UHGV virus genome: UHGV-0057547
Source of the DNA: a virus
DNA: 64,000 nt
Direction: 5' to 3' (one strand)
Made by a program: the position numbers and the translations under genes. Below are positions 30,951 to 55,254 of the stretch, one piece after another; position 1 is the first letter of the stretch; the number at the start of each line of letters is the position of its first letter. The notes below the pieces were generated by a model. That model saw only the letters and a list, made by a program, of their open reading frames with translations. It ran no database searches and was not told the DNA's origin.

Positions 30951-31072
30951 GTTTCAGTGCTTGTTACAATTTCAGAACAAGCTTCCCTATTCATCGTATC
31001 CTCTTTCCTTTTTACAAAGTACTCAAGTTTGTATGATACTCCCAGGGCGTAAATTCGGAACTGAACTTTCCT
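30951..31072 (-). ncRNA. conserved structured RNA element (copy 2), directly downstream of promoter 31094..31122
   Basis: Minus-sense AUAGGAAAGUUCAGUUCC-GAAUUUACGCCCUGGGAGU-(UACAAACUUGAGUACUUUGUA hairpin)-GAGGAUACGAUGAAUAGGGAAGCUUGUUCUGAAAUUGUAACAAGCACUGAAAC. Confidence 0.6.
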
Positions 31073-31093
31073 ATTTATTTCTTATTTACTTAT

Positions 31094-37294: not shown

Positions 37295-37406
37295 GTTTCA
37301 ATGCTTACATTTAAGCTTCCCTATTCAACATATCCTCTTTCACCTAATGGCTACTTGAGTTTGTGTGATACTCCCAGGGCGTAAATTCGGGTTTGAACAT
37401 CCCTAC
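37295..37406 (-). ncRNA. conserved structured RNA element (copy 3), in the 5' leader of sigma factor gene 36682..37257
   Basis: GUAGGGAUGUUCAAACCC-GAAUUUACGCCCUGGGAGU...GGAUAUGUUGAAUAGGGAAGCUUAAAUGUAAGCAUUGAAAC. Near-identical to the copy at 41340..41451. Confidence 0.6.
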
Positions 37407-38120: not shown

Positions 38121-38132
38121 AATATCACCATC

Positions 38133-38918
38133 CTAATCAGCAAATTTAAAAGATACTTTCATATCAGCTTTAGTACAACTAGCTTGAGCATTATATTTTT
38201 TATTTAATAGATTATATTTTATTGTATATTTGTTACAACCTAAAACTTTACAAGCTATTAAATAATTGTCAAATACTTTATGATAACCATCATTATTAAA
38301 TACAATTACTTCTTTATCTTCTATTTTATCACTTTCATCTTCATAATCATATTCATTAATACTTAATTGTTCTTTATTGTTTATTAATTCTTTTCTTAAT
38401 TTCATTATTAATTGTTGCACTCTTTGTTTACTTATTTCCATTTTACAACCTATTTCCTCATAGTTATAACCATTCATAAGCATTATAACTATATCATATA
38501 ATCTTTTATCTTTTAAATTTTTTATATAATTTAATATTTCATTTCTATAAATACCTGTAAAATCATCTAATCTTCCAACAGTTCTATCTCTAACTTTTTC
38601 GGTATCTTCATCCATACCTTCATTTTCATGAACTTTTCTTTCTCCACCTTTTTGAACATATTTATATAAATCATTATTAACAAAACTTAACATTTTATTT
38701 CTAATTGATTTTACAGCCAAAGTACTAAATTTTCCTTTACTTTCATCATAAGTTTTAATGACATTATATAAAGTTATCATTCCAATTTGTTTTAAATCAG
38801 CATATACATCATATTCAGATACAGTTGTATAGAAAAATCTTTGTATTACCCAATCCACTAAACTTTCATTTTCTATTAACATTTTTTCTATTCTTATTTC
38901 ATTTTCAAATTTTTCCAT
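38133..38918 (-). CDS. sigma-70-family sigma factor
   Basis: Region 2 DWVIQRFF...ADLKQIGMITLYNVIKTYDESKG; region 4 MEISKQRVQQLIMKLRKEL. Confidence 0.6.
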   Translation of the reverse strand: MEKFENEIRIEKMLIENESLVDWVIQRFFYTTVSEYDVYADLKQIGMITLYNVIKTYDESKGKFSTLAVKSIRNKMLSFVNNDLYKYVQKGGERKVHENEGMDEDTEKVRDRTVGRLDDFTGIYRNEILNYIKNLKDKRLYDIVIMLMNGYNYEEIGCKMEISKQRVQQLIMKLRKELINNKEQLSINEYDYEDESDKIEDKEVIVFNNDGYHKVFDNYLIACKVLGCNKYTIKYNLLNKKYNAQASCTKADMKVSFKFAD

Positions 38919-39016
38919 CTTTCATATCCCCCATTCTTTATCATATAATAATTATATTACATTTTTTATCTATTGTCAACAATTATCACCAACTTTATTT
39001 TTTATTTTTTTTTACT

Positions 39017-39763
39017 TTATTCCCTCCATTCAAAATTTATTTTCTTATTTAAAGTTTTACTTTTAGCACTTTTCCTTAATCCTTGACATATTTTCCTAAT
39101 AGAGTTCTTATCAATGCCTAAATCTTCACTAGCCATTTGAAGATTATCATAATTTTTATAAAATTTTCCATCTATAAAAGCTACAACACTTCCTTTACTT
39201 TTCCTAATTTCATGTTTAATATTAAATTTTTCTTTTAAGTTTTCTTTTATAAAAAACATTTTTTTATTTATAATACGATAATTATTATTTAATATTTCAC
39301 TTATTTCTTTTCCGTTGTATCCTCTTAGCATATAGTAAAATATTATATAATAATCTCCACCTAAATTCTTTACATATTGTAAATACATTTCAATGTATAA
39401 AATTGTTTCGTCATCATAATCACCCAACATATCTTCAAGAGTTAACTTTTCATCTTCTTTAGTTTGTATATCTTCATTAAGTGATAAAATATTTTTATTA
39501 TTTATTGTATGTTTTTTATTAATATAGGTTATAATAGAATTGTAAATGCATTTACTACAATAACAAATAAAGGATTTCTCATTGTTTATATTGTCAATAG
39601 GTCTATAAGTCTTATATGCTTTTACAATAGCTATTCTACCTTCTTGTAATAAATCATCATAATCATTGCTATAAATGAAATTTGAAAAATGTCTTTTGAT
39701 ATTTGATTTAATCAGATATTCATATTTGATTACAACTTCATTTATATCAATTGCGTTCTCCAT
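39017..39763 (-). CDS. sigma-70-family sigma factor-like protein
   Basis: Region 2-like DDLLQEGRIAIVKAYKTYRP; C-terminal basic HTH-like region. Confidence 0.5.
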   Translation of the reverse strand: MENAIDINEVVIKYEYLIKSNIKRHFSNFIYSNDYDDLLQEGRIAIVKAYKTYRPIDNINNEKSFICYCSKCIYNSIITYINKKHTINNKNILSLNEDIQTKEDEKLTLEDMLGDYDDETILYIEMYLQYVKNLGGDYYIIFYYMLRGYNGKEISEILNNNYRIINKKMFFIKENLKEKFNIKHEIRKSKGSVVAFIDGKFYKNYDNLQMASEDLGIDKNSIRKICQGLRKSAKSKTLNKKINFEWRE

Positions 39764-39870
39764 TTTTCAATTCCCCCTTTATTACTTTATTTACTTATAT
39801 TATACTATCATTCTTATTAAAAGTCAATAATAAAAAAAATAAAAAAGGAGAAAATTTTCTCCTTACAAAT

Positions 39871-40185
39871 TTATAAATAAGTTATTTCTAATCCTAAATT
39901 TTTAGCTACTCCTATAATCTGATATACTTCTTCATCCCTTTCAGGAAGTACATAAACTTCATCAGCAAAGGTTAATATTTTTAATGAATAATTTATCAAC
40001 TCATCCTTATCAATGTCCTTAGAAAGCCAACCAACGGCTTTCAATGGACTTATATATAATATATGTTTCCTTCCATTCTTTAAATCATCCCTAATCAATT
40101 CTCTAATTAAGGATTCAATTGCTTTTTCTTGTCCTTCCGTATTACTACCAGTAATAAATATAACCTTATAATCATCTAACTTCAT
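39871..40185 (-). CDS. possible nucleoside 2-deoxyribosyltransferase-like (DUF4406-like) protein
   Basis: KVIFITGS...ILYISPL...ADEVYVLPE pattern. Confidence 0.3.
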   Translation of the reverse strand: MKLDDYKVIFITGSNTEGQEKAIESLIRELIRDDLKNGRKHILYISPLKAVGWLSKDIDKDELINYSLKILTFADEVYVLPERDEEVYQIIGVAKNLGLEITYL

Positions 40186-40197
40186 TATATCATCCCC

Positions 40198-40848
40198 TTA
40201 TAAATTAGTAGTTTTGTATCTAATTAATTTCATTGCCATGTCGTCAAGTTGTTGAAATGATTCTCTTAATGTTTTAGAAAAATATTGTTCTTTACCTAAT
40301 TCCTTTTCTCCTAATTGAACAGTGCTACCACTAAAATCAGTTTCTTCAAGTTCTTCATTTTCATTTAAACAGTTTACCATTTTATTATATGAAACATCAG
40401 TCATAATTAATACTTCTTTATATTGTATTTCAAATACTAATTTCCATTTTCTTTTATCCTCAGTTCCATTTTTATTAATTTTAAGTTTTAGGTAATCACT
40501 TACTTTATCTCTTATTGGTAATATTTCTATTAAACTTCTTTCAACAGATTTTTGTATATTATTGTATGTTCTATATATATTACTATCATTTTCCATATTC
40601 CTTATTAACCATTTTTCATGAGCTTTAACATGACATACGCCAAACATTATATTAAGTGAATGGTATAGCCATTTATTTTCTTTTTTACTTTGGTTTATTA
40701 TTATTCTTATTTTTGTTTTAAAACTATTTTCTTTTGCTATTCTTCTTGTGCCTTGATTACCATGTTGTTTATATTCTTCATAACTATCTAATTTTCTATA
40801 ATCTTTTCTTTCTTTTAAATTTACATTAGTTTCTAATTCTTTTTTCAC
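40198..40848 (-). CDS. hypothetical protein
   Basis: 216-aa ORF; no recognisable motif. Confidence 0.4.
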   Translation of the reverse strand: MKKELETNVNLKERKDYRKLDSYEEYKQHGNQGTRRIAKENSFKTKIRIIINQSKKENKWLYHSLNIMFGVCHVKAHEKWLIRNMENDSNIYRTYNNIQKSVERSLIEILPIRDKVSDYLKLKINKNGTEDKRKWKLVFEIQYKEVLIMTDVSYNKMVNCLNENEELEETDFSGSTVQLGEKELGKEQYFSKTLRESFQQLDDMAMKLIRYKTTNL

Positions 40849-40878
40849 AATATCTTCTCCCCTTTTTATAATTTATTT

Positions 40879-41256
40879 TTATTTTTTACTTTTACCTTTT
40901 CCTTTTAATTCGGATTCTTTTTCTTTTTCAGCTTTTTTTGATTTCTTAAGTTCTTCAAAATAAGTTGGTAATATTTGTTTCATTTTTTTTCTAAATTCTT
41001 TTGCAAAATATTCTTTAATTTCTTTAACTTCTTTTTCTACCTCTTTAGGAATTTCATCACTTACATCAATTTCATTTAATATACTTAAATGCAATTTTCC
41101 AAAGTCATTATTATATCTTGCACTTTCGGCTCTAGTTTCGCTAAATCTAACTAGATATTTGTTTGTGTATTCCTCATTGAAACAATATTTATATGCATCA
41201 ACTTGTCTGTCAACAAAGTTATCTAATTTTTCTTTATCACTTTTTTTCATAATCAT
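40879..41256 (-). CDS. hypothetical highly charged protein
   Basis: 125 aa, Lys/Glu-rich; downstream of RNA element copy 4. Confidence 0.4.
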   Translation of the reverse strand: MIMKKSDKEKLDNFVDRQVDAYKYCFNEEYTNKYLVRFSETRAESARYNNDFGKLHLSILNEIDVSDEIPKEVEKEVKEIKEYFAKEFRKKMKQILPTYFEELKKSKKAEKEKESELKGKGKSKK

Positions 41257-41339
41257 CTCTCCCTTTTTATAATTTTTTATATTTATTTTAATACTTGATT
41301 GTTATATTTGTATTATTCTTCTTCTTAGCTTATCGGTTT

Positions 41340-41451
41340 GTTTCAATGCTTACATTTAAGCTTCCCTATTCAACATATCCTCTTTCACCTAATGGCTACT
41401 TGAGTTTGTGTGATACTCCCAGGGCGTAAATTCGGGTTTGAACATCCCTAC
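41340..41451 (-). ncRNA. conserved structured RNA element (copy 4), in the 5' leader of gene 40879..41256
   Basis: Near-identical to copy 3. Promoter 41489..41517 immediately upstream. Confidence 0.6.
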
Positions 41452-41488
41452 ATATTAATTTTTTATTTTTATTATCTTATTTACTTAT

Positions 41489-41517
41489 ATTATACTATTG
41501 CTATTATTAAAAGTCAA
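41489..41517 (-). promoter_or_regulatory. consensus promoter cassette
   Basis: TTGACT (41512-41517), 17 nt, TATAAT (41489-41494). Confidence 0.6.
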
Positions 41518-41621
41518 GTATTATTTTTATCTTATTTATTCGTCTACTTAGTTTCATGTTTGTTTTAGCATATGTTACATTTGTACGTAATCCATTTTTT
41601 AAATATAGAAGACTACTATCA

Positions 41622-41786
41622 TGTTTCAGTGCTTGTTACACTTGTATGGAAAGACTACTAAAAAGACAATGGAGTTTCAGTGCTTTGACAAGCTTCCCTG
41701 TTCATCGTGTTCTTTTTCACTTTATATAAGCTACTCAAGTTTTTATAACACTCCAAGGGCGTAAATTCGGAACTGAACTTTCCTAC
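41622..41786 (-). ncRNA. conserved structured RNA element (copies 5 and 6; internally duplicated 3' module), located 47 nt downstream of the tnpB stop codon with no promoter of its own. Candidate omegaRNA-like RNA
   Basis: Same AUAGGAAAGUUCAGUUCC-GAAUUUACGCCCUUGGAGUG-...-GAACACGAUGAACAGGGAAGCUUG core, then two GCACUGAAAC modules. Positionally equivalent to a TnpB omegaRNA (3' of tnpB, same strand). Confidence 0.5.
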
Positions 41787-41832
41787 ATACCGAATATATC
41801 TTGTTGGTGATTATTATTCGGTTTTATTATAT

Positions 41833-43014
41833 TTAATATTGTGCTAAGTTTATAGAGGCATTTAAGTCTCTATCCATTGTGTGTCCACATTCAGGACAAG
41901 TAAAAGTTCTATCTTTCAATTTTAATCTTTCTTTTCCTATTCTTATATATCCACATTTACTACAAGTTTGTGAACTAGGATACCATCTGTCAGCTACTAC
42001 TAATTCAATTCCATAGTCATCACATTTATAAGTTAATTGATTTTTGATTTCATTAAATCCTTGTTGCCCTATTGATTTACTTAGATGTTTATTTTTCATC
42101 ATCCCTTTTACGTTTAAATTTTCAATAACTACTCTTTGTGGTTTCTTTTCTACTATTTGATGTGTCATTGTATGTCTATAATTATTTCTTATACCTGCAA
42201 TTCTATGTTGTAATTTAAGTATTTGTTTTTCTAATTTTATTATATTATTAGTCTTATGATATTTCTTTCCTTGTCTATTCATTTCATATTTTCTACTCAC
42301 TTGTCGTTGCATACGTTTTAATTTCTTTTCTAATTTTCTAACATGAGCAGTTTTATTAATGTTTTTATATACTGTGCCATCACTACATATTGCTAAATCT
42401 TTTATTCCTAAGTCTATTCCTAATGATGTTGGATTTAATTCAGGTTTTTCTTTTATTTCTCTTAAGCCTACACTAATGCTCCAATATATCCCATTGTATG
42501 TGACTCTAGGATTTACATATTTAATTTTAGGATACATTTCGCTTTCTTCATAAGGTATATAACCTTTTCTAGCTAATTTGATTGTTCCTATCTTAGATAT
42601 TTTTACTGTATCTTCAGTGATTTTTATACGTTGATAATGTGGTGCAAAAGCTGGAGTTGTTTTATTTCTACTTTTAAATTTAGGATAACCAACATCAGGT
42701 CTTTTGAAAAAATTTTTAAAAGCATTACAACTATCTGTATATGCAATTACTAGTGCCATTGAATCACAATCTTTAAGCCATTCATTACCTTCTTGATTTT
42801 TGTAAGCAGTGAAATATTTGCTTAATCCTTTTGATGGTATAAACTTTTCTTTTTTAGGAATACTTTCATCTTCATATCTACTTTTTTGAAATGCTAAACA
42901 CCAATTATATACATGTCTTGCACATCCTGCTTGAAAGAACATTTGTTTTTCTTGTTGTTTTGTTGGATATAACCTAACTTTGAAAGTTCTAATCTCCATT
43001 TTCAATTCCCCCAT
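41833..43014 (-). CDS. tnpB: TnpB (IS200/IS605 OrfB-type RuvC-like nuclease), catalytic residues intact
   Basis: FKVRLYPTKQQ N-terminus; RuvC-I GIDLGIKDLA; RuvC-II VVIENLNVKGMMKN; zinc finger CSKCGY...CPECGH; RuvC-III MDRDLNASINLA. Confidence 0.85.
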   Translation of the reverse strand: MGELKMEIRTFKVRLYPTKQQEKQMFFQAGCARHVYNWCLAFQKSRYEDESIPKKEKFIPSKGLSKYFTAYKNQEGNEWLKDCDSMALVIAYTDSCNAFKNFFKRPDVGYPKFKSRNKTTPAFAPHYQRIKITEDTVKISKIGTIKLARKGYIPYEESEMYPKIKYVNPRVTYNGIYWSISVGLREIKEKPELNPTSLGIDLGIKDLAICSDGTVYKNINKTAHVRKLEKKLKRMQRQVSRKYEMNRQGKKYHKTNNIIKLEKQILKLQHRIAGIRNNYRHTMTHQIVEKKPQRVVIENLNVKGMMKNKHLSKSIGQQGFNEIKNQLTYKCDDYGIELVVADRWYPSSQTCSKCGYIRIGKERLKLKDRTFTCPECGHTMDRDLNASINLAQY

Positions 43015-43032
43015 TTATCTTTATTTACTTAT

Positions 43033-43061
43033 ATTATACTATCGTCCTTATTAAAAGTCAA
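43033..43061 (-). promoter_or_regulatory. consensus promoter cassette driving tnpB
   Basis: TTGACT (43056-43061), 17 nt, TATAAT (43033-43038). Confidence 0.6.
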
Positions 43062-43070
43062 TAAATTTTG

Positions 43071-43100
43071 AAAAAAACTGAGAAGAAAAATTTTCTTCTC
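43071..43100 (-). terminator. rho-independent terminator
   Basis: Minus-sense hairpin GAGAAGAAAAUUUUUCUUCUC followed by UUUUUUU. Confidence 0.55.
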
Positions 43101-43390
43101 TATATTAAATCATATAGTTCTATACATATTCTAGAAAGTAAATTATCTATTTCTATCAAATTGTCGGTACAAACAACATCCGTGTATTTCATTAAATTGG
43201 TAAGTGCATTTAAAACTCCTTTAATTTCTTCTTTTGATTTAAAATTTATTATTCCATTTTTAACTCTATTGTATAAAAATAATAAATAATATTCATCATC
43301 ACTCTTGAATCCTTTACCATACTTATTTAATGTTTTCTTTATGGCATCCTCTAGCATTTCACTTTCAACTAAGTTTAAATTATATTTCAT
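43100..43390 (-). CDS. hypothetical protein
   Basis: 96-aa ORF; no recognisable motif. Confidence 0.4.
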   Translation of the reverse strand: MKYNLNLVESEMLEDAIKKTLNKYGKGFKSDDEYYLLFLYNRVKNGIINFKSKEEIKGVLNALTNLMKYTDVVCTDNLIEIDNLLSRICIELYDLI

Positions 43391-43514
43391 AATTCCCCAA
43401 CTCCTTTTTATTTTTTTATTTTATTTACTTATATTGTACTATTACTTTTATTAAATGTCAAGTATTTTTGAAAAAAACTGAGAAGAAATTTTTCTTCTCT
43501 AAATTAAGTATTTA

Positions 43515-43799
43515 TTAAAATGTCTTAATTAAGAATACTATCATTATTACTACTCCTATGCCCCCTAAAATTGCTCCCATTTTACTAAATTTAATTTGTT
43601 CTTCCATTGCCATTATTAATCTTTCTTTGTCCTCTTGTACTGTAAATCCATCTTTTCTCATTTCCTCTATAAGCGTATCTATATTGGCTGAGTATTCATT
43701 GTAATATGCTCTATCTCTAATGTAATTTAGAATAGGTAAAAAAGCTAAACAAATACCAAATACTTCTAATGCTCTACTTATTAATAATGATAAATTCAT
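43515..43799 (-). CDS. small membrane protein
   Basis: Hydrophobic N- and C-terminal segments. Confidence 0.4.
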   Translation of the reverse strand: MNLSLLISRALEVFGICLAFLPILNYIRDRAYYNEYSANIDTLIEEMRKDGFTVQEDKERLIMAMEEQIKFSKMGAILGGIGVVIMIVFLIKTF

Positions 43800-43940
43800 A
43801 AAATACCTCCAATTTAAAGTCCTTAAGACTATTTATTTTTTTTATTTTGTTTTTTTATATTTATTATACTATTATTATATCATGTAGTTTATGTTATGTC
43901 AAGCATTTTTGAAAAAACTGAGAAGAAAATTTTTCTTCTC

Positions 43941-44537
43941 TTATAAACTTAGATTTAATAAATTAACTTGTTCTATTATTTCTTTATTATCAGATAAAAA
44001 AACTTTTTTTCTTCTATCGTACAATACTACATGACTACCACATTTCTTGCAACTAGCACCTTTGAAGGCTTGCTTTTTGCTTTCTGTCAATTTACTAACA
44101 GTTCCTATTATTCCATCTTTTGGACAGATTACAAAATATTTATCATTTCTTTCTTCATATTTCAATTTTACTTTCAGACTATCAGATATTTCTAAATACT
44201 TACAAACTTCTTTCCATCTATCATCATGATTACAATTATCATCGTGTAATTCATTAGCTATATAATGTGCTAATTCATGTTTTAATACGTATTCAAGTTT
44301 TTCATTTGTTGCATTTCTAAAAAATGATTTAGATATTTGCATGTCACAAGGGACTATTTTTTTAGAGTTTCTTGTAAGATAAAATCTATAACAAGCAACT
44401 TTCTTTTTAAATCTTCCATTAAGATTTATATCTTTTTCAAATAATGGTATTTCATTTCCTGTTTTCTTATTAAACATTTCTATGTTTTCATTTAAAAATA
44501 CTCTTACTTCATTAACATTTTTTATTCTTCTTTCCAT
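43941..44537 (-). CDS. SprT-like zinc metalloprotease with C-terminal zinc ribbon
   Basis: HELAHYIANELHDDNCNHDDRW (HExxH plus downstream His); CKKCGSH. Confidence 0.55.
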   Translation of the reverse strand: MERRIKNVNEVRVFLNENIEMFNKKTGNEIPLFEKDINLNGRFKKKVACYRFYLTRNSKKIVPCDMQISKSFFRNATNEKLEYVLKHELAHYIANELHDDNCNHDDRWKEVCKYLEISDSLKVKLKYEERNDKYFVICPKDGIIGTVSKLTESKKQAFKGASCKKCGSHVVLYDRRKKVFLSDNKEIIEQVNLLNLSL

Positions 44538-44650
44538 TCTTCATTCCCCCTAAAATATTTTTATTATTTATTTCTTTTATACTTATATTATATACTAGAT
44601 TTTATCTATTGTCAAGTATTTTTGTAAAAACTGAGAAGAAAAAATCTTCT

Positions 44651-45238
44651 CTATTCAACTTCAACTTCTATTTTTTTAAAAAAATCTATCATTTCTTTTT
44701 CGTATTTATTGAAAAGTCTGACTGCTTTTTTATCTGCTATTTTTTCACATTCGATATTCCTATAGTGTTCCATTTGCATCTCACCAATTAACCAAGTATT
44801 TATTTCATATTCCTTTTCACATTCAAAATATAATTTATTATATCCATGTTTATCAAGCGACCTATTTAGTGTTATCATATGCCCTATTTCATGTAATATA
44901 GAAACCATGCAATAAACTTGAAAAAAATTCATTTCATATTTTTTCATTATGTAATTGTAATTAAAACCATAATGCTTTAAATAATCCACAAAATATTCAT
45001 GCTGTCTAATTATACTTTCTCTTTCGGTATAAACATTTTCAGGAACATATAACAAACTATATCTATCAACTTTTTCTTGTCCTCCACATGCAAAAGATTT
45101 TTTTGAATATTTTTGTATGCAATAAGGTATTCCTTTTTTCAATTCTTTTTTCTCTATAAAAAAATCAAATATTGAATTCATAAAATCTTCTGTGATGTCA
45201 ATATATTTTCTTTTTATTAAATCACTTTTAAGTTTCAT
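44651..45238 (-). CDS. HEXXH metallopeptidase (ImmA/IrrE-like)
   Basis: ILHEIGHMITLN. Confidence 0.45.
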   Translation of the reverse strand: MKLKSDLIKRKYIDITEDFMNSIFDFFIEKKELKKGIPYCIQKYSKKSFACGGQEKVDRYSLLYVPENVYTERESIIRQHEYFVDYLKHYGFNYNYIMKKYEMNFFQVYCMVSILHEIGHMITLNRSLDKHGYNKLYFECEKEYEINTWLIGEMQMEHYRNIECEKIADKKAVRLFNKYEKEMIDFFKKIEVEVE

Positions 45239-45264
45239 TTTTTATTTCCCCCTTTATACTATAT

Positions 45265-45293
45265 ATTATATATTAAGTTTTATATATTGTCAA
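45265..45293 (-). promoter_or_regulatory. sigma-A-type promoter (TTGACA-17-TATAAT) for gene 44651..45238
   Basis: TTGACA 45288-45293, 17-nt spacer, TATAAT 45265-45270. Confidence 0.5.
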
Positions 45294-45302
45294 TCACTTT
45301 TG

Positions 45303-45331
45303 AAAAAAACTGAGAAGAAAAAATTCTTCTC
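45303..45331 (-). terminator. rho-independent terminator, 3' of RNA element copy 7
   Basis: Minus-sense GAGAAGAAUUUUUUCUUCUC followed by AGUUUUUUUC. Confidence 0.55.
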
Positions 45332-45384
45332 TTTTAAAAAAAATTTTCTTTAATAAAATCTTTTATTTCAATTAGAATTACTCC

Positions 45385-45498
45385 GTTTCAATACTTGTTA
45401 TCAAGCTTCCCTATTCAACGTATCCTCTTCCCCTCTTATGAGGTACTCAAGTTTATATGATACTCCAAGGGCGTAAATTCGGAACTGAACTTTCCTAT
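45385..45498 (-). ncRNA. conserved structured RNA element (copy 7), a stand-alone unit flanked by its own promoter (45518..45546) and terminator (45303..45331)
   Basis: AUAGGAAAGUUCAGUUCC-GAAUUUACGCCCUUGGAGUAUC...GGAUACGUUGAAUAGGGAAGCUUGAUAACAAGUAUUGAAAC. Terminator about 45 nt downstream; a second promoter then drives the next gene. Confidence 0.6.
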
Positions 45499-45517
45499 TT
45501 ATTTCTTATTTACTTAT

Positions 45518-45546
45518 ATTATACTATTTTTACTGTTGAATGTCAA
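45518..45546 (-). promoter_or_regulatory. promoter cassette driving RNA element copy 7
   Basis: TTGACA 45541-45546, 17 nt, TATAAT 45518-45523. Confidence 0.6.
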
Positions 45547-45657
45547 GTATTATTTTTAAAAACTGGGAAGAAAAATTTTCTTCCCTTGATTGTTTTCGCA
45601 CAAAAGTAGGCTACGTCAGCACAAAAGTGGGCGACCCTATATTTTATTCCAATTTAA

Positions 45658-46236
45658 TTATTCCAATTTTTTAATCATATAGTGCGTAATTTTTCTTTTT
45701 CCTTTTTTCTTTCTTTTTAAATCATATCCATGCTCTTTTAATATTTTTTCTAAAGTGGGTAAACCTATTAATCTATTTCTGTTATCCCTAAGGTTATTTT
45801 TAATAATTATATCATTAAAAATAATATCTCTAGTAATCCATTTATTAAGTAGATTATCTTCAATGGAAAGGTCAATTTTTATATGTTTATGTTTTCTATG
45901 AATAACACTAAGATGACAATGTATACATAATGTTTTATAAGTATAAAACAAGTGTTTTCCTAATACTTTTTCTTCTATGTTTTTCAACTCTAATTTTGTA
46001 TAATTATCTATTGTTTTATATTCTTCTAGTCCTAACTCAATTAAAGTATCTTTTACCATATTAGCAAATGGATAAATGTGATGAACTTGTAAATCTTCAA
46101 TTCCACCGCATTGTTCACATTTATTCTTTTTAACTAACTTTACAAACTTATACCAAACTTTTATCCTTATATAATTGTTTAATGTTTGTTTTCTTTTTTC
46201 ATTATTTAACATTCCTTTTTTAATTATAATATTCAC
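45658..46236 (-). CDS. HNH endonuclease
   Basis: CEQCGG...LQVHHIYPF...CIHCHLSVIH. Confidence 0.65.
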   Translation of the reverse strand: MNIIIKKGMLNNEKRKQTLNNYIRIKVWYKFVKLVKKNKCEQCGGIEDLQVHHIYPFANMVKDTLIELGLEEYKTIDNYTKLELKNIEEKVLGKHLFYTYKTLCIHCHLSVIHRKHKHIKIDLSIEDNLLNKWITRDIIFNDIIIKNNLRDNRNRLIGLPTLEKILKEHGYDLKRKKKGKRKITHYMIKKLE

Positions 46237-46239
46237 CTT

Positions 46240-47307
46240 TTATTTTTTATTATAAATATACATTTTGTAGAAATTATCCCAAATTTGATAGTATTCTTCA
46301 GAATATTGAAGTTGTCTTAATCTACTTTCTTTCATAAGTATAGCATATTCAACATTAAATCCATTTCTAGATTTTATTTTTTCATCAATAGTTTTTTTAT
46401 TTTTATTTTGTCTTTTTAGTGCCAAAGATTTTCTAATTTCATATATATCATTTTTAATTATATCCACATCAAAACCATTTAAATAGTTCTTCTTAATATA
46501 TTCTATATCTTTAGTTAGAAAAATTTGAAATGCTTCATAAGTATATTTATATCCTAATTCACAAGTCAATTCAAAACTTAATTCTTTATCAAAGTCTTTT
46601 AATTTTTGAATATTACATTTTATATTTTCCTTTCTGTTGCCATATACTAAATCATTTCTACTTGTAATACTATATTTCTCACATATTCTATTTTCAATAT
46701 CTATTACTTTTCTTAATTGTATAGAATTTGTATTAAGATACACTTCATTATTTTCTAAGTCTACTGCAATTTTCACTTTATACCATTTTATTAAATTATC
46801 TTTTTTTTCAAGTTTATTTAAAGCAGATAAAAAATTTGAATATAAGGCAGAATTTTCAACAGAGAAAAAATCTTTTTTAACTATATCTTTATCGTTTAAA
46901 ATAGGATATTGATAATTAATATTCTTTTTTTCATTTGGATAAAATATTTCTACTAGAGCCATACTAGTTAGCCAATTGTCAAATGTTTTTACACAATATG
47001 TTTCATCTTTAAAATTGCAATAACCTATAATAGAATTTAATAAAGCTTGTTTCATTAAAAAACTCATACTCTTTTCATCCTCCTTAATATCATATACTTT
47101 CCTTTTGGAACTATCAAATTCTATCCCATTGCTCCCCATAAGAGTATAATATACTCTACTTCCTATTTTATTTTTTTCCACTGCACATACTTTGGAAAGT
47201 TTATTGATTAAAGTTTTTTCTTTTTTTCTAAAATTACTATAACTGTAGTCACAAAGTTCACAAAGTTCTTTTGATGTATAAGTCCCATCTTGTAATATTA
47301 CTTCCAT
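46240..47307 (-). CDS. hypothetical protein
   Basis: 355-aa ORF; no recognisable motif. Confidence 0.4.
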   Translation of the reverse strand: MEVILQDGTYTSKELCELCDYSYSNFRKKEKTLINKLSKVCAVEKNKIGSRVYYTLMGSNGIEFDSSKRKVYDIKEDEKSMSFLMKQALLNSIIGYCNFKDETYCVKTFDNWLTSMALVEIFYPNEKKNINYQYPILNDKDIVKKDFFSVENSALYSNFLSALNKLEKKDNLIKWYKVKIAVDLENNEVYLNTNSIQLRKVIDIENRICEKYSITSRNDLVYGNRKENIKCNIQKLKDFDKELSFELTCELGYKYTYEAFQIFLTKDIEYIKKNYLNGFDVDIIKNDIYEIRKSLALKRQNKNKKTIDEKIKSRNGFNVEYAILMKESRLRQLQYSEEYYQIWDNFYKMYIYNKK

Positions 47308-47323
47308 ATCATCAACTCCTTTT

Positions 47324-47387
47324 GTCCCCCAAACAGTTCTCTATATATATTATATTATATATTATATTATAGAACTGTTTGGGGGAC
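47324..47387. repeat. large GC-rich inverted repeat (about 19-bp arms GTCCCCCAAACAGTTCT / AGAACTGTTTGGGGGAC around a 25-nt TATAAT-like AT loop)
   Basis: Read directly; exceptionally GC-rich arms for this genome; abuts the RBS of gene 46240..47307. Confidence 0.6.
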
Positions 47388-47489
47388 ATTATTTTTATAT
47401 ATTTATATATATTATACTATAAATTTTATTAAAAGTCAATAATAAAAATAAAAAAAAGAAAGGCTATTTAAACCTTTCTTTTATATGAA

Positions 47490-48065
47490 TTAAACATTAA
47501 ACATTAAATCACCTAAGCATAAAAGAAAATCTTTTTCTAATTCCCAGTTATCCCATATTAAAACATCATATTCATTTTTTGTATGTCCTTCATATCCTTT
47601 TTCACAATATAACCAAGTTATTAATTCACCATCGGCTTCTCTGTAAGTTGCTCTATGTGCCACTACTGTTTCTAAATAATTTGTATCATGTAAAAAATCT
47701 TCATTTTTTAAATCTTCTTCTGTTAATTTGTCTTTTGCTATTTTTAAAACAAATATATCATTACAGTTTTCTATATCTTCATCTTTATAACCTAAAGTCA
47801 CTGTTGCTTCATAATTATCATCCAATTCTTCTATATCTACATTAATCTTATCTATATCTTTAGCAGAATCTAAATATAATTTTTTATTATCATTTAATTC
47901 ATTATATTGTGGCTGATATTCTTCAATGTTTCTTTCGATTTCATTTATTATATTTTCTTTTAACAATTTTTCACCTTGTTCTATTTGGTTATTAGAACAT
48001 CCTATCATAGATATGGCCATTAGACCTCCTAAAATCAATCCTAAGCCCTTTCTAAATACTTTCAT
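47490..48065 (-). CDS. lipoprotein
   Basis: Signal peptide plus lipobox MKVFRKGLGLILGGLMAISMIGCS. Confidence 0.55.
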   Translation of the reverse strand: MKVFRKGLGLILGGLMAISMIGCSNNQIEQGEKLLKENIINEIERNIEEYQPQYNELNDNKKLYLDSAKDIDKINVDIEELDDNYEATVTLGYKDEDIENCNDIFVLKIAKDKLTEEDLKNEDFLHDTNYLETVVAHRATYREADGELITWLYCEKGYEGHTKNEYDVLIWDNWELEKDFLLCLGDLMFNV

Positions 48066-48158
48066 GAATAATTCCTCCTTTAACCTTTAAAATTCATTTA
48101 AATCAATTATATCCCATTATAGGACAGAATATACAACTGAGGATATTAAATATCCTCT

Positions 48159-48314
48159 TTATTTGTTTTTATCAGGTAGACAAACTATAACTAATAGTGC
48201 GAAAAATCCAAAGAAAAATCCTAATAATAACCAAGCTACAGTACTTCTACCTTTTTCAGTAGCAATAAGACAACATCCAATTGCAAATAAAATACTCCAA
48301 ATTAATATAGCCAT
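48159..48314 (-). CDS. small membrane protein (51 aa)
   Basis: Hand-translated MAILIWSILFAIGCCLIATEKGRSTVAWLLLGFFFGFFALLVIVCLPDKNK. Confidence 0.4.
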   Translation of the reverse strand: MAILIWSILFAIGCCLIATEKGRSTVAWLLLGFFFGFFALLVIVCLPDKNK

Positions 48315-48380
48315 AATTTCAACTCCTTTTTAAATTTTATATTTTGTTATCAACTGAGGATATTAAATATCCTCTTTAAT

Positions 48381-48983
48381 TTAATATGTTATTAAATCCA
48401 ATTCTTCCATTTCGTTTAATAAGTCATAATCGCATACATCTTTATAATAGCCATTTTCATATTTAAATAAATTTATCTCATCGCTTAAAGCATTTACTTC
48501 TACATAATATATTTCATCATTTAATTCAACTTCTACTGATTTAGAACATTCTAAGAATAATTCTAAAAATTCTTCTTCATAATTAAATTTCAAATACATC
48601 CATTCAGAATATCCAACTCTTACATCTCCACGTCCACAATGAACTCTAAATCCAACTATATATTCATCTTCTTTAGTATCATAATAAGTTCTAAAATCAA
48701 TATGATTAATTAATGGTGCATTCCAGTTATAAGTATTATCGGCAGTTATTTCTTCTATCCAACCTTCATCAAGTCCTATTTCTAAATAATCATCAATATA
48801 ATATTCATAATCAGTTTCTTCTTCTTTATCCCATATAATACCATTAATAACTTCATAAGGTTCTAAAACATTTAATATATCCATTATATCAACTGTCAAT
48901 TCATTTTCTTTTATATTATAAGTTCCTTCTAAGCATTTTTTTACATCTTCTATTTTTGTTCTTCCAAACATATAAACCTCCAA
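48381..48983 (-). CDS. hypothetical acidic protein
   Basis: 200-aa ORF; no recognisable motif. Confidence 0.4.
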   Translation of the reverse strand: MEVYMFGRTKIEDVKKCLEGTYNIKENELTVDIMDILNVLEPYEVINGIIWDKEEETDYEYYIDDYLEIGLDEGWIEEITADNTYNWNAPLINHIDFRTYYDTKEDEYIVGFRVHCGRGDVRVGYSEWMYLKFNYEEEFLELFLECSKSVEVELNDEIYYVEVNALSDEINLFKYENGYYKDVCDYDLLNEMEELDLITY

Positions 48984-49220
48984 GTTTAAAGTCCTAAAGA
49001 CTATTTATTTTTTTATTTATACTTATATTATATAGTATAATTTATATCATGTCAACTATTTTTAAAAAAATATTTTAAATTTTTTATTTTGTTTTTATTG
49101 ATTGTTAATAACTGAGAACATTAAATATCCTCTTTATACTATATATTATATATTAGTTTATATGATATGTCAATATAATATTAAAAAAATATAGAGAAAA
49201 AATCTCTATATTTTTTATAT

Positions 49221-50051
49221 CTATGCCAATTGTTGTAAATCAGTTTTATTTATTTCTATTTTTAAAATTTTACTTAATGCCATTATGCCTTTAGGAGTGA
49301 TTTTAAGATTACTATAATTATGACCTTCTTTCTCTCCAACTATTACCTTAAACCACGTTTTATCAACTTCAGAATACGGTAACCAACTTTTGCCTTGCTT
49401 GAATATAATTCTATTTTCATTTAATGTTTTATTAAATTGTTGTGCTGATTTAAATTTAAATAATTTAGCAACTTGAGTTGATGTATATAATCCATTGCTA
49501 TTCATAAAATCATCAAAATAATTTACTTTAGGTTTATCTTTTTCTATTTTTTCTAATAATGGTTTCTTTTCTAGTTTTGCTAATTCTTTTGATGCTACTA
49601 TTCCCTCTTGTCCACCATTATAGATATCTAGTAATAATTTTGCTTTTAATTGTTCATCAGAATTTATTACTTCTCTCATTGCAAAATATTCTCTTCTTAA
49701 TTGTTTTCTTATTTCTTTTGCTTTTTCAGTTTTCATGAATCCAACCAATAACATATAACCTTGTTCAGATAATAAATAGCAATTTTTTTGTCTATTATTA
49801 GTTATAAATCCTAAAACCTTAGCAAGGTTTAAGGATTTTTCATCAGACATCAAATCCAATAAATCAATTCCTATTTCAAATTCATCTATATGTTCATTTA
49901 TTAATGTATTAACTTTATCCAATCTAGTATCATGTATTTCAGATATTGTTTTAGCTAAGATAGCTTTTTGACCTTCACCAAATCCACTTTCTACAACAGG
50001 TATTTCTTTACCCATAAAATCTTGTGTGCCATTAACTTTCAATTCATTCAT
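49221..50051 (-). CDS. antirepressor-like protein (paralogous N-terminus with 53650..54756)
   Basis: NGTQDFMGKEIPVVESGFGEGQKAILAKTISEIHD vs NGTQDFMGVKIPVIEGGFGEGKRCLTDKVISEIHN. Confidence 0.4.
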   Translation of the reverse strand: MNELKVNGTQDFMGKEIPVVESGFGEGQKAILAKTISEIHDTRLDKVNTLINEHIDEFEIGIDLLDLMSDEKSLNLAKVLGFITNNRQKNCYLLSEQGYMLLVGFMKTEKAKEIRKQLRREYFAMREVINSDEQLKAKLLLDIYNGGQEGIVASKELAKLEKKPLLEKIEKDKPKVNYFDDFMNSNGLYTSTQVAKLFKFKSAQQFNKTLNENRIIFKQGKSWLPYSEVDKTWFKVIVGEKEGHNYSNLKITPKGIMALSKILKIEINKTDLQQLA

Positions 50052-50167
50052 ATTACCAGCTCCTTTTATTCTTATTTGATTATATTATACTTATGCCTTT
50101 ATTAAAAGTCAATAAAAACCTAAAAATAAATTTTAGGTTTCATAACTGAGGATTAATTAAAACCCTC

Positions 50168-50602
50168 TTATTTTACTTTATGTCCATTTATGCTATAAGT
50201 ATGAGTTTTGCCTTTATTGTCAATTCCTTTCACTGTCACCTTATAAGTTCTATATTCTTTTAAATCTTTTTCCATATTTGTTCCATGTAATTTGTTAGCT
50301 ACTTGTTTTACTATCTTCTTAGTTTTAGAACTGTTTAAGTTGCTTCTAAATTTAACTACATATTCTTTACTATTCATTTTTAAACTATAACTTGTTATTC
50401 TTAAATATTTTAATACTTCTTTATTTTCTCTTTTTTCTATGCTGTCAAGTGTTATGTAAGTTCTTCCTTTTGCTCCTTGAATTACTTTAGCATTAATTAT
50501 TACTGTATTTCCTAAAACCATTAAACCTATTAAACCTACCATAGTAATTTTTTTTATTAAATTTTTCATAATATCAAATCTCCTTTTTATTTTTTTATTC
50601 AC
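50168..50602 (-). CDS. secreted/membrane-anchored hypothetical protein
   Basis: N-terminal hydrophobic segment after a basic stretch. Confidence 0.4.
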   Translation of the reverse strand: MNKKIKRRFDIMKNLIKKITMVGLIGLMVLGNTVIINAKVIQGAKGRTYITLDSIEKRENKEVLKYLRITSYSLKMNSKEYVVKFRSNLNSSKTKKIVKQVANKLHGTNMEKDLKEYRTYKVTVKGIDNKGKTHTYSINGHKVK

Positions 50603-50623
50603 CTTTTGGGTGATAACTGAGGA

Positions 50624-50815
50624 TTATAAAATCCTCTTAAAATAAAAATTGAAGTTCATTCTATTAATGTCATCATGTATCATGTCATCGTGGACTTTTA
50701 CCCACTCATCGGATACACTGCTTAACAAATCCTCTATGCCTTCATTGAAATAGCTTAAATAAAAATTGTCAAATTTAATTGCGTTCATATCCAACTCTCT
50801 ATCCTCTGAAAACAT
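50624..50815 (-). CDS. small hypothetical protein immediately 3' of RNA element copy 8
   Basis: Probable ATG start MFSEDREL...; the last codons and the stop lie within a conserved hairpin. Confidence 0.3.
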   Translation of the reverse strand: MFSEDRELDMNAIKFDNFYLSYFNEGIEDLLSSVSDEWVKVHDDMIHDDINRMNFNFYFKRIL

Positions 50816-50842
50816 ATTATTTTTTGCTTCTACTGTCAATAG

Positions 50843-50952
50843 GTTTCAGTGCTCATTAGTAAGCTTCCCTGTTCAACGTGTTCTCTTTCGTTTTAAACTA
50901 CTCAAGTTTTTTACAACACTCCAAGGGCGTAAATTCGGAACTGAACTTTCCT
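50843..50952 (-). ncRNA. conserved structured RNA element (copy 8)
   Basis: Promoter TTGACATTATATATAAGCTAGTATATAAT immediately upstream. Element ends GCACUGAAAC about 30 nt before the next ATG. Confidence 0.55.
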
Positions 50953-51045
50953 ATTTATATTATATACTAGCTTATATATAATGTCAACTGAAAACTTAAA
51001 AATAAATTTTAAATTTTCTCACTGAGGATATTATTAAATATCCTC

Positions 51046-51303
51046 TTAATACCATTTTCCGTATCTACTTTCATATTCATCTAGTGTTATTATACTAAAA
51101 TCAATCTCTGAATCTACCTCTGATATTTCAACTATATAAGGTTTTCTATTGATAAAAACTTTTGTATCTGAAACATATTTTATATTGTCTAAAACCTTTT
51201 TTAAATTTTGTTTATTAAGTTTATCTAGCATATTATCATATATACCTAATGTATACCCTTCACTTTTTATTTTATTTATTATTATTTCCTTATTTGTTTT
51301 CAT
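51046..51303 (-). CDS. hypothetical protein
   Basis: 85-aa ORF, cassette region. Confidence 0.4.
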   Translation of the reverse strand: MKTNKEIIINKIKSEGYTLGIYDNMLDKLNKQNLKKVLDNIKYVSDTKVFINRKPYIVEISEVDSEIDFSIITLDEYESRYGKWY

Positions 51304-51416
51304 TTTTAAAATCCTCCTAATTCATTTTTATACTATAATTGTATCATAGTATTTATCTATTGTCAAGTAAAAACTTAAAAATAATTTTTATTTTTCTTAA
51401 CTTTCATAACTGAGGA

Positions 51417-51842
51417 TTAATTAAAATCCTCCAAAGATATTAGTATTTGTTTAAATACATTATCATTGCTTAAATCTTTTATTATATTTTTTAAATCATT
51501 ATTTTTATTACTGTCTCTTATTATTAATTCTATGTCTTCTTCTATGTAATCTATGCTGTCATAGACATATTCTTCATAGTCACATCCCATATAGCTTACT
51601 AGTTCTCCATTATCATTATAATGAAATAAATCTTCATTAGAATTAAAATTACCATTTTCAATTTTATCTGCTATTTCTAGTGGCTCTAAACCTTCCATTA
51701 ATTCGTTGAATTCTTCCATATCATGAACTATTAACCAATCTAAATAAAAACTATTATAACTTATAACTTCAACAAGTTCTAATAAATCAGTGTAATTACT
51801 TCTATCCTCTAAATTTTTTCTTAAAGATTCAAATTTATTCAT
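51417..51842 (-). CDS. hypothetical acidic protein
   Basis: 141-aa ORF, cassette region. Confidence 0.4.
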   Translation of the reverse strand: MNKFESLRKNLEDRSNYTDLLELVEVISYNSFYLDWLIVHDMEEFNELMEGLEPLEIADKIENGNFNSNEDLFHYNDNGELVSYMGCDYEEYVYDSIDYIEEDIELIIRDSNKNNDLKNIIKDLSNDNVFKQILISLEDFN

Positions 51843-51979
51843 AATAACAACTCCCTTATTTATTTTTTTTATTTATCTTTATACTATGTATTATATACTA
51901 GTAATTATATATTGTCAAGTGAAAATCTAAATTTTATTTTTAAATTTTCATAACTGAGAATACAGAATTGTATTCTCTT

Positions 51980-52309
51980 TTAGATATTTAAGAATTCATT
52001 ATCTTCTAACATTGTTACTTTATAATCATAATATTTTTTTATAATGTTGATATCGTTTTTATCATATGCTATTATATAAATATTACCTTCTACTTCAGCA
52101 ACTTCTCCAATAATAAAATTATTAAATCGTTCCAATGTTAAATCTTCCAATACAGAATCATCTTCTTCAAATAATTTTTCTTTTTCTTTTTCATCTTTTG
52201 CTAATAAATCAACTAAACATTCAAAATGTAAACTATTTTCTATAAGTTTTCCATCAGCTATAACAAAAGCATTTTTTCTATATAATTCATAATCATATTC
52301 TATTTTCAT
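51980..52309 (-). CDS. hypothetical protein
   Basis: 109-aa ORF, cassette region. Confidence 0.4.
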   Translation of the reverse strand: MKIEYDYELYRKNAFVIADGKLIENSLHFECLVDLLAKDEKEKEKLFEEDDSVLEDLTLERFNNFIIGEVAEVEGNIYIIAYDKNDINIIKKYYDYKVTMLEDNEFLNI

Positions 52310-52621
52310 AATAATAACTCCCTTTAATTTATTTTTTATTTATCTTTATACTATGTATTATATATTAGTGATTATATATTGTCAAGCATTTAAATAAAAA
52401 AATCCATATATTTTTACATATATGGATTTTAGATATTTTATTTAAAATAATAATTCATATTATTTACAATTAAGTTAGTAACATATAGTAAACCTTTTTT
52501 AGTCATACAGATACCCTTAGAATTATTATTTATATTTTCATATATAAATAAATTTTTCTTTTTATTTTTATCTGTTAATCTTTCACTTGTTTTGAATTGC
52601 TTTTGTTTTATCATAAATTTA

Positions 52622-53383
52622 TTAAATAATGTTATTCCTATTTTTTTTATGATAGAATTCATATTTATTAAATAAATCTACGTATTCTTTTTTACCCATA
52701 ATTACATTATCATCTAAACTATTTAAATAAGTTTTAAACTTATCTAAATTAGTTATATTAATTACTGTCATATCATTATTTTTAGTAGTTAAAGTTTTAG
52801 AACTTTTATTTAAATCATCAATCTTATCAGATAAACTTTCTATCATTTTTAATAATTCATTTATTGTTTTATTTTGTTCTTCTATTTTATCAAGTAGTTC
52901 CGTATTGTTTACTGTTAGTGTTTCATTATTAGAATTTCCATTTAAAATTATGTCAAGCATTTTACTTCTTATTTCTTGTGCTACTTTGCTATCTCTTAAT
53001 AACATTGCCATATTTAAAAAACATCTTTTATTTACCAATGTATTACTTCTATTATTAAATTTTCTATTATCTGATATAAAATAACCTTTATAGTTATGAA
53101 GGGAAATATTGTCCCCTCCTAAAAATTCTCTTGTTTCCTTACCTTTTAATATTAATAAACCATTTTTAATTAATTCTCTTTTATTGTTTTGAACTAATTT
53201 TTTAATACATTCATAATCAACTTCAAAATATTTAGCCACTCTGTCAAGTGTTTCATATTCCATATTATTAATTGTAGTTATAGTTTTATATTTATTCATT
53301 ATATCTAAACTTTTATTATTATTTAATATCTCTTGTCTTAATTCCTCTTTTTCTAAAATATCATTTAATACCATTATTACCAA
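52622..53383 (-). CDS. hypothetical protein
   Basis: 253-aa ORF; no recognisable motif. Confidence 0.4.
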   Translation of the reverse strand: MVIMVLNDILEKEELRQEILNNNKSLDIMNKYKTITTINNMEYETLDRVAKYFEVDYECIKKLVQNNKRELIKNGLLILKGKETREFLGGDNISLHNYKGYFISDNRKFNNRSNTLVNKRCFLNMAMLLRDSKVAQEIRSKMLDIILNGNSNNETLTVNNTELLDKIEEQNKTINELLKMIESLSDKIDDLNKSSKTLTTKNNDMTVINITNLDKFKTYLNSLDDNVIMGKKEYVDLFNKYEFYHKKNRNNII

Positions 53384-55142: not shown

Positions 55143-55254
55143 GTTTCAATGCTTGTAACAAGCTTCCCTATTCAACGTGTTCTTTTTCACTTTATAAGCT
55201 ACTCAAGTTTTTGTAACACTCCCAGGGCGTAAATTCGGAACTGAACTTTCCTAC
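55143..55254 (-). ncRNA. conserved structured RNA element (copy 9)
   Basis: Promoter 55270-55320 upstream. GUAGGAAAGUUCAGUUCC-GAAUUUACGCCCUGGGAGUG...GAACACGUUGAAUAGGGAAGCUUGUUACAAGCAUUGAAACGC. Followed only by tiny ORFs (21 and 23 aa). Confidence 0.55.

Follow-up and report, generated by a model that had tools for sequence, protein, structure and literature searches.

A stand-alone RAGATH-18 RNA unit in a large phage genome is a likely single-guide RNA gene of the phage's own TnpB-type nuclease

Introduction

The virus genome sequence UHGV-0057547 was analysed as one stretch of 64,000 nt (the window), in which a 114-nt RNA element lies between a promoter and an intrinsic terminator, followed by a second promoter and an open reading frame (ORF) with a HEIGH motif (Table 1). 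The element contains RAGATH-18, the scaffold of the IS607 TnpB guide RNA (reRNA), and in this RNA the guide comes 3' of the scaffold (Ren et al. 2024, PMC11061315). From the sequence we consider it likely that this unit is a free-standing single-guide RNA gene of the phage's own TnpB-type RNA-guided DNA endonuclease, its role probably being TnpB-mediated cleavage of, and homing into, rival phages.

Results

Layout of the locus

All features of the unit lie on the minus strand, and the promoter, element, terminator and second promoter that an earlier sequence-only reading had placed there were all borne out at their positions. The promoter said to head the element is present as a full consensus (12/12), with an A-rich leader of 13 nt between it (45546-45518) and the element, but it is not element-specific; it represents a class of promoter that the phage uses generally, dozens of ordinary genes included, and for that reason the shared promoter was ruled out as part of a mobile unit. 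The terminator stem (GAGAAGAA-UUUU-UUCUUCUC, 45331-45312, with three G-C pairs) is followed by AGUUUUUUU to 45303 and starts 53 nt past the element, rather than about 45 nt as first given; its hairpin is present in the minimum free energy (MFE) and centroid folds, which qualifies it as a predicted intrinsic terminator. Terminator-like sites numbered 4 in 44500-46500 (0.2 expected) and 17 in 36001-56000 (1.9 expected), and TTGACN-16/18-TAnAAT matches numbered 44 on the minus (coding) strand and 1 on the plus strand. Since the terminator counts exceed expectation and the promoter matches are strand-biased, the signals of the unit are beyond chance. The downstream ORF (45238-44651), which had been called a HEXXH peptidase gene, does have a 12/12 promoter of its own and the HEIGH motif, but it matched no Pfam family.

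A RAGATH-18 scaffold in eight copies

The element core (45471-45407) matched Rfam RAGATH-18 (RF03064) over the full-length model (1-71) with 57.3 bits, against a gathering score of 44.9, and its GGAGU...CGUUGAA aligns to conserved positions of the consensus; a k-turn has been assigned in this family (PMC8191799). Around the core, the scaffold comprises a 5' hairpin (45495-45481), a 3' hairpin (GCTTG-ATAA-CAAGT, 45406-45393) and a terminal ATTGAAAC (45392-45385). The Rfam search returned eight copies in the window, all on the minus strand, and relaxed thresholds added no further copies there and no degenerate ones. In the alignment of the eight, homology starts at (A/G)UAGG and stops sharply at ...A(C/U)UGAAAC.

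One copy (41759-41694) directly follows tnpB, and the other seven are orphans, including the element at the locus, whose scaffold is 84% identical to the TnpB-linked copy. Six of the seven orphans stand directly behind strong promoters, while at the seventh (17648-17534) no more than a -10 box is seen. The majority of the other copies are located in 5' leaders and continue into genes. The claim that one copy forms a stand-alone unit holds for the layout at the locus; however, copy 55227-55164 also reaches a terminator (55001-54975) before the next promoter. That copy stands in place of the first 22 codons of a J-domain (HPD) protein gene, which is intact in locus L012; what is left of the gene has lost an internal stretch and runs to the terminator, giving a second near stand-alone RNA unit. 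A scan of genome contigs with the scaffold core found ordinary multi-copy IS607-type elements in many Bacillota and gave no pointer to the host.

We analysed covariation in 14 distinct copies from this phage and its relatives, with 500 shuffles and slid alignments as controls. Paired cells made up 99.1% of all cells, with double (compensatory) changes in 11 of 24 pairs, and the 5' hairpin, the RAGATH-18 helices and the 3' hairpin were all preserved across the set; none of the shuffles reached this level, and the slid controls were 40-52% paired. These results indicate that the orphan RNAs are under structural selection, because their helices are kept by compensatory changes.

A TnpB nuclease gene in the same genome

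The sole TnpB of the window (43014-41833, approximately 390 aa, 2.4 kb from the unit) contains Pfam HTH_OrfB_IS605, OrfB_IS605 and Cas12f1-like TNB domains, and its best PDB match is ISFba1 TnpB (8iaz; E 4e-68, 39% identity). Mapping to ISFba1 showed the RuvC residues D201, E298 and D383 to be present; with the catalytic triad intact, a nuclease-dead TldR-like repressor role was dropped. The ISFba1 residues that contact the target-adjacent motif (TAM), namely N61, K80, K83, N121 and N122, are all replaced, which is consistent with a TAM other than the G-rich one of IS607 TnpB (AGGAG or GAGGG; Ren et al. 2024, PMC11061315).

The TnpB-linked scaffold runs into a degenerate mini-array (41673-41552) with a 27-nt spacer, a repeat ACAAGTGTAACAAGCACTGAAAC (41645-41623), a 38-nt spacer and a decayed repeat ending CATGAAAC. 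This remnant holds 2-3 decayed units, and the element at the locus consists of one fused unit. Neither guide of the TnpB-linked copy (TCCATTGTC... and ATGATAGTAG...) had a match among the loci compared or an exact match in IMG/VR.

The window as a whole is phage DNA, with a split DNA polymerase III (Pol III) alpha, RecJ, DnaB, ligase, anti-repressors, sigma-like proteins and a G+C content of 24%, and its source is a large clostridial-type phage. By Pol III alpha (64% aa identity), the closest isolates are C. difficile phages of the phiCD211 group; phiCD211 has no RAGATH-18, and megablast of 40000-50000 against isolate phages and plasmids gave no match.

Element-free alleles in sister phages

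A viral contig scan provided a sister set of five contigs, matching parts of the window at 90-100% identity, including IMGVR_UViG_3300045988_159628, _160472 and _152729. The element is absent at the locus in contigs 160472, 166499 and 152729 and in one metagenome contig (OJKC01000178.1), the latter being the one element-free allele that a metagenome target scan added, with no further occupied one. In these four element-free alleles, an intact 41-codon membrane-like gene (MMNICMDIILVCLAIVTLILTIGLIGVILIEIKDFIKEKFF, then stop) has the guide and the next 31 nt at its end, together with the terminator. Because the same sequence ends an intact gene in relatives, the apparent spacer and the terminator of the unit are the remnant of that gene. 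Relatives lacking the element keep the terminator, promoter and downstream gene at 94% identity. Contig 159628 is occupied by the element at this site too, but there a 72-codon ORF, and not directly the promoter, precedes it, so the exact promoter-RNA-terminator layout is specific to this genome. The stand-alone layout is a by-product of the place of the element in a gene remnant, with no dedicated design.

At the 3' end, the junction falls exactly after TGAAAC in 8/8 occupied-versus-empty comparisons of independent sites. The 5' junctions are ragged and different at every site, with 80 bp to approximately 1 kb of upstream DNA replaced.

Single genes within 43000-45600 of the window are each enclosed by near-identical terminator-promoter modules (GAGAAGAA..TTCTTCTC AGTTTTTTTC AAAA.. 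TTGAC), and these repeated modules could supply recombination homology 5' of elements. In contig 160472 (L003 5380-5960 versus window 30850-30760), an element lies within the 3' end of an ORF, which keeps a diverged duplicate of its last approximately 15 codons upstream of the element, with four mismatches to the guide in 20 nt; since the diverged codons are retained, this ORF is intact yet an imperfect target. Two sister contigs (L002 3349-4702; L006 3309-4660) contain a clean insertion of another TnpB element, unrelated to the first and 1353-1354 bp long; it has its own promoter, no RAGATH-18 match and a right end ...TTTTAAGTAAC, and its insertion point falls exactly between a Shine-Dalgarno sequence (GGGG) and the start codon, the corresponding empty sites in the window being 18719/18720 and 44547.

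Guide and target-adjacent motif

With the guide length of 20 nt taken from Ren et al. 2024, the predicted guide GGAGUAAUUCUAAUUGAAAU is identical (20/20) to a protospacer with 5' TTA in contig 152729 (L011), and has one mismatch (G at position 12) to the protospacers of the other three element-free alleles (L006, L012 and L146; contigs 160472, 166499 and OJKC01000178.1), which have 5' ATA. The evidential weight for a guide lies only in the adjacent motif and in array spacers, both of which are given below.

The bases of the empty alleles directly 5' of the match are AACTA, TGTTA, TAATA/TATTA, GATTG, AATTG/GATTG, GATTA, AATTA and ATTTA. All sites (8/8) have T at -2, all (8/8) have R at -1, and 6/8 have T at -3, which gives N-T-T-R, and the information content of the eight sites was reached by 5 of 20000 random site sets. 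Occupied alleles have GAAAC in the motif positions, leaving the phage's own copy without the motif. We also considered AGGAG, which is found at one junction (L006 ...taatAGGAG|TAATTC), as an IS607 TAM; this was ruled out because the occupied allele retains GGAG 3' of TGAAAC, AGGAG is absent from the seven remaining sites, and array protospacers show TTA.

Relatives of the window TnpB provided these arrays. Phage tnpB loci L075-L081 (71-79% identical TnpB) have a RAGATH-18 scaffold with a 28-nt anti-repeat extension and, approximately 230 nt past the scaffold, 2-8 direct repeats of approximately 37 nt ending AAGUAUUGAAAC, with a period of 73-75 and unique spacers of approximately 36 nt (for example L076 2146-2950 and L080 722-1530). 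The closest relative (L074, 93%) has such an arrangement at 4247-4712, with three repeats that are 96, 93 and 89% complementary to the 28-nt anti-repeat; it holds the intact equivalent of the window mini-array. The 3' hairpin of the element (GCUUG-AUAA-CAAGU) equals the base of the anti-repeat:repeat duplex of these array systems, closed by a tetraloop. Three array spacers of the relatives match protospacers in other phages, with 5' TTA in all three. The empty alleles and the array spacers agree on a guide that starts right after GAAAC and on N-T-T-R as the predicted motif. No array spacer identical to an orphan guide was found.

Two features of the arrays stand beside this result. In L075-L081, the last, decayed repeat overlaps the ribosome-binding site of TnpB. 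The L076 spacer at 2918, one of the three, matches tnpB coding sequence of other phages (L079 3289, L080 1833, L081 3289, L009 815) with one mismatch and 5' TTA; it seems that the nuclease genes of rival phages are among their mutual targets.

Guides of sister orphan elements match TTA-flanked sites on the minus strand of the window at 36013-35994, 30804-30785 and 48463-48444, with 2, 0 and 1 mismatches and with contigs 159628, 160472 and 152729/166499 as the respective sources. The window genome is therefore itself a predicted target of its relatives, and targeting would be mutual.

Table 1 Features of the unit and of related loci in the window
Feature	Position	Strand	Remarks
Upstream gene's terminator	45565..45585	-	GGGAAGAAAATTTTTCTTCCC + AGTTTTT
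Sigma-70-type promoter, TTGACA-17-TATAAT, 12/12	45518..45546	-	Predicted start near 45511
Guide-RNA scaffold, 114 nt	45385..45498	-	RAGATH-18 match, covariation, exact 3' boundary
Predicted 20-nt guide GGAGUAAUUCUAAUUGAAAU	45365..45384	-	Directly after TGAAAC; protospacer matches in sister phages
3' remnant of 41-codon membrane-like gene, 51 nt	45334..45384	-	GVILIEIKDFIKENFF, then stop; intact gene in sister phages
Intrinsic terminator, 8-bp stem, 4-nt loop, U7	45303..45331	-	Inherited from truncated small gene
Second promoter, TTGACA-17-TATAAT, 12/12	45265..45293	-	For downstream ORF
Downstream ORF, 195 aa, HEIGH motif	44651..45238	-	Outside RNA unit
TnpB nuclease gene	41833..43014	-	Promoter 43061-43033; presumed trans-acting protein partner
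TnpB-linked scaffold copy	41674..41790	-	RAGATH-18 core 41759-41694
Degenerate mini-array after TnpB-linked scaffold	41552..41673	-	Intact equivalent in L074
Orphan scaffold copy	55143..55254	-	Core 55227-55164; promoter 55317-55289; guide GCTATGAAGTTTCACCCTGA in truncated J-domain gene; terminator 55001-54975
Orphan scaffold copy	50843..50954	-	Core 50927-50865; promoter 50987-50959
Orphan scaffold copy	41340..41451	-	Core 41424-41362; promoter 41517-41489
Orphan scaffold copy	37295..37406	-	Core 37379-37317; promoter 37472-37444
Orphan scaffold copy	30951..31074	-	Core 31047-30983; promoter 31122-31094
Orphan scaffold copy	17534..17648	-	Core 17621-17556; -10 box, no clear -35

Proposed mechanism

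The sequence establishes the identity of the scaffold and the protein, the exact junctions, the conserved target-adjacent motif and the selection on RNA structure; from these we infer transcription, loading of TnpB, cleavage and homing. In the proposed scheme, the strong phage promoter would start a transcript near 45511, and the RNA would fold into the RAGATH-18 scaffold, with its 5' hairpin and a short 3' hairpin ending AUUGAAAC, run on into the guide GGAGUAAUUCUAAUUGAAAU (with GGAGTAATTCTAATTGAAAT as the target-matching stretch) and stop at the terminator (45331-45303). The primary transcript would be approximately 205 nt, probably trimmed to approximately 135-150 nt; because TnpB guide RNAs are trimmed, a mature RNA of about 135-150 nt is more likely than the 200 nt of the sequence-only reading. 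TnpB from 43014-41833 would bind the RNA in trans, and the complex would cut guide-matching DNA beside 5' N-T-T-R. The phage's own copy would be protected, since GAAAC stands in the place of the motif, whereas target DNA in co-infecting sister phages with the intact 41-codon gene would be cut. The cut DNA would then be lost, or be repaired from the element-bearing genome with the element and its flanks copied (homing, or marker exclusion). The motif at the empty sites and the TTA at the array protospacers together are the reason for reading the unit as a natural gene for a single-guide RNA, placed at the very site that it would target.

It is conceivable, but to us rather doubtful, that the units are non-autonomous RNA-guided phage gene drives, born from an array spacer that recombined with its own cleaved target. 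Such an origin would weld the repeat end (TGAAAC) to protospacer position 1 and delete the TTR motif, which would yield exactly the type of junction observed, and the unit would then use the TnpB of any co-infecting phage to cut and convert empty alleles.

Discussion

Weighing the interpretation

Several results weigh against a guide RNA gene that acts with TnpB in trans. Any element will show a match between guide and target when set against its orthologous empty site, and three of the four element-free alleles, having ATA and the mismatch at position 12, may be resistant to cleavage. Folding of the whole 209-nt RNA was no better than that of shuffles (z = -0.84). The 5' junctions are ragged, and no transposase was found that would account for the spread of the scaffold to new sites: neither a resolvase nor a Y1 transposase was detected (Pfam or PHROGs) among 59 scanned minus-strand ORFs of at least 100 aa, in a scan that covered 64 kb of phage genome and left 4 minus-strand and 6 plus-strand ORFs of that size outside it. 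Contigs 159628, 160472 and 152729 carry orphan elements, and a pattern-based search gave no close TnpB for them among the best 80 matches listed; in two such searches with the same limit, a cognate TnpB (93%) was seen in contig 166499 only, the other sister contigs having, among the matches listed, a second TnpB type (43-44% identical) or none. Orphan RNAs may thus persist without a resident partner, rely on a co-infecting one, or in some cases be idle.

The last point could be taken further, to the view that the unit is an inert relic of an old TnpB-element insertion, perhaps transcribed and without function. The unit is not beside the TnpB gene, sister phages with no cognate TnpB detected still carry copies, and neighbouring gene remnants are decaying; yet all helices are kept through compensatory changes, even relaxed Rfam thresholds revealed not one degenerate copy, a strong promoter directly precedes six of the seven orphans, and an intact TnpB is encoded in the same genome, and we regard a relic as improbable. 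The same partnerless copies, together with rival guides that are aimed at this genome and at each other's tnpB genes, would also suit a decoy or hijacker RNA that loads the TnpB or TranC of a rival phage or host and either neutralises it, in the manner of an RNA anti-CRISPR, or redirects it. This too is improbable, and a little more so, given that the genome has its own intact TnpB, that the conserved N-T-T-R at the empty sites suggests junctions made at genuine targets, and that a pure decoy would need no guide with an exact junction.

The sequence-only reading had itself favoured a trans-acting RNA, be it an sRNA or a guide, which the RAGATH-18 scaffold, the intact TnpB of the same genome and the protospacer with a TAM-like motif in sister phages support as far as sequence goes, and had offered a transcription-attenuation switch as the alternative, in which element and terminator are a cis leader governing read-through into the HEXXH gene. 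The placement of the element between promoter and terminator upstream of a gene agrees with an attenuator, as does the majority of the other copies, which run from 5' leaders into genes, but the claim is not supported: an independent 12/12 promoter (45293-45265) stands between terminator and gene, element-free relatives retain terminator, promoter and gene, and the terminator is the truncated 41-codon gene's own. Pairing of scaffold with terminator occurs in neither the MFE nor the centroid fold, and a guide function has been demonstrated for the RNA family, so that we give an attenuator very little credence. Still less credence is due to a canonical IS607 transposon, or PATE-like derivative, whose guide RNA is moved by a serine-recombinase TnpA and only restores the transposon after excision, even with RAGATH-18 described alongside IS607 TnpB and with ωRNA-only PATEs known to act in trans (PMC10055086). 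The transposase scan described above was negative, the right end is ...TGAAAC as against ...GGCAACGG in bacterial copies, the inferred TAM is T-rich and not AGGAG or GAGGG, and there is no conserved left end, the length of upstream DNA replaced differing from copy to copy. A single-guide RNA gene of the phage's own TnpB thus remains the reading that we favour.

Comparison with known systems

By RNA family and protein homology, the unit groups with IS607 TnpB-reRNA, and functionally its clade seems to resemble TranC. The ISFba1 TnpB/reRNA complex (PDB 8iaz) has the same RNA family (RF03064), a homologous protein with the same RuvC triad, and a guide 3' of a scaffold that lies outside the coding sequence. 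However, the unit lies 2.4 kb upstream of tnpB with its own promoter and terminator, and only copy 41759-41694 adjoins tnpB. The 3' flank of the core is 22 nt with one hairpin and ends GAAAC, as opposed to approximately 60 nt ending GG in ISFba1 (the right end of bacterial copies is ...TTTTGGCAACGG); the inferred TAM is N-T-T-R, with every TAM-contact residue different; and the setting is a large phage with no TnpA found in the scanned window ORFs.

TranC is a transposon-CRISPR intermediate, of which the TnpB-sized CauTranC9 comes from a Caudoviricetes genome and has an array that targets phages (bioRxiv 10.64898/2026.03.27.714800). Relatives of the window TnpB (71-93% identity) similarly combine a scaffold with a 28-nt anti-repeat, 2-8 units of approximately 37 + 36 nt, spacers that target other phages beside a short T-rich motif, and a protein no larger than TnpB, the likeness to CauTranC9 being one of described layout. 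Unlike in TranC, a 5-bp hairpin closed by a tetraloop is all that the unit has of the anti-repeat:repeat duplex, which makes it a natural single guide; DNA flanking the element supplies the guide, in transposon style, in place of an acquired spacer; and the units are dispersed over the genome.

PATE-like derivatives of IS200/IS605 encode only ωRNA (Meers et al. 2023, PMC10055086), and share with the orphan units a guide RNA without an adjacent nuclease gene and an expected TnpB in trans. PATEs retain both ends and are moved by TnpA, whereas the copies here are in a phage, with no left end or transposase found; measured against the two retained ends and clean insertion that define a PATE or MITE, only the 3' boundary of these copies is exact. 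In T-even phages, SegF, SegB and other free-standing homing endonucleases bring about intronless homing and marker exclusion (review PMC13565253). The proposed outcome here is the same, namely a cut in the allele of a co-infecting relative, followed by repair that brings in the element along with flanking markers, but recognition would be by an RNA guide plus a motif of 3-4 nt, so one protein can serve many loci via separate small RNA genes. Small viral guide-encoding loci directed against close relatives are likewise found as mini-CRISPR arrays in archaeal viruses, where they are used in conflicts between related viruses and depend on host Cas proteins and repeat-spacer units; here, in contrast, the phage encodes the nuclease itself and a full scaffold is joined to the guide. 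The novelty of the unit appears to be its dispersed, promoter-driven, single-guide form at its own target in a phage genome.

Transposons are the known setting of TnpB guide RNAs, and arrays that of TranC/Cas12 guides. In this genome, at least seven separate single-guide genes, driven by promoters and each located at the site that it targets, apparently serve one phage nuclease of TnpB size, whereas close relatives of the nuclease use repeat-spacer arrays. If so, this would be natural multiplexed RNA-guided homing and exclusion among competing phages, with reciprocal targeting visible between sister genomes. It would also offer a compact natural single-guide RNA (sgRNA) design, with a scaffold of approximately 114 nt, a T-rich TTR motif and a nuclease of approximately 390 aa, and a testable system for the shift from flank-derived to acquired guides in the origin of type V CRISPR. 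Should the more tentative gene-drive view be correct, the transposon mode and the CRISPR mode of one nuclease would coexist in a phage group, which would represent a living transitional stage from TnpB ωRNAs to type V CRISPR. The main value would lie in phage-versus-phage biology and in the TnpB-to-CRISPR transition within this phage group.

Other observations in the window

The Pol III alpha-like polymerase is split into two ORFs (3032-4564 and 4986-6668), and the 421-bp gap between them has no Rfam intron match. Three tandem tyrosine-recombinase-like ORFs and three sigma-factor-like ORFs occupy 32523-35393 and 36682-39763, and the orphan scaffold 37379-37317 lies directly upstream of a sigma-like gene. 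Within 60896-61220, four tandem promoter-like units (TTGACATT..CTACAAT) are spaced approximately 100 bp apart, each followed by a similar short sequence (aaaacaaaagcaacttaggaa).

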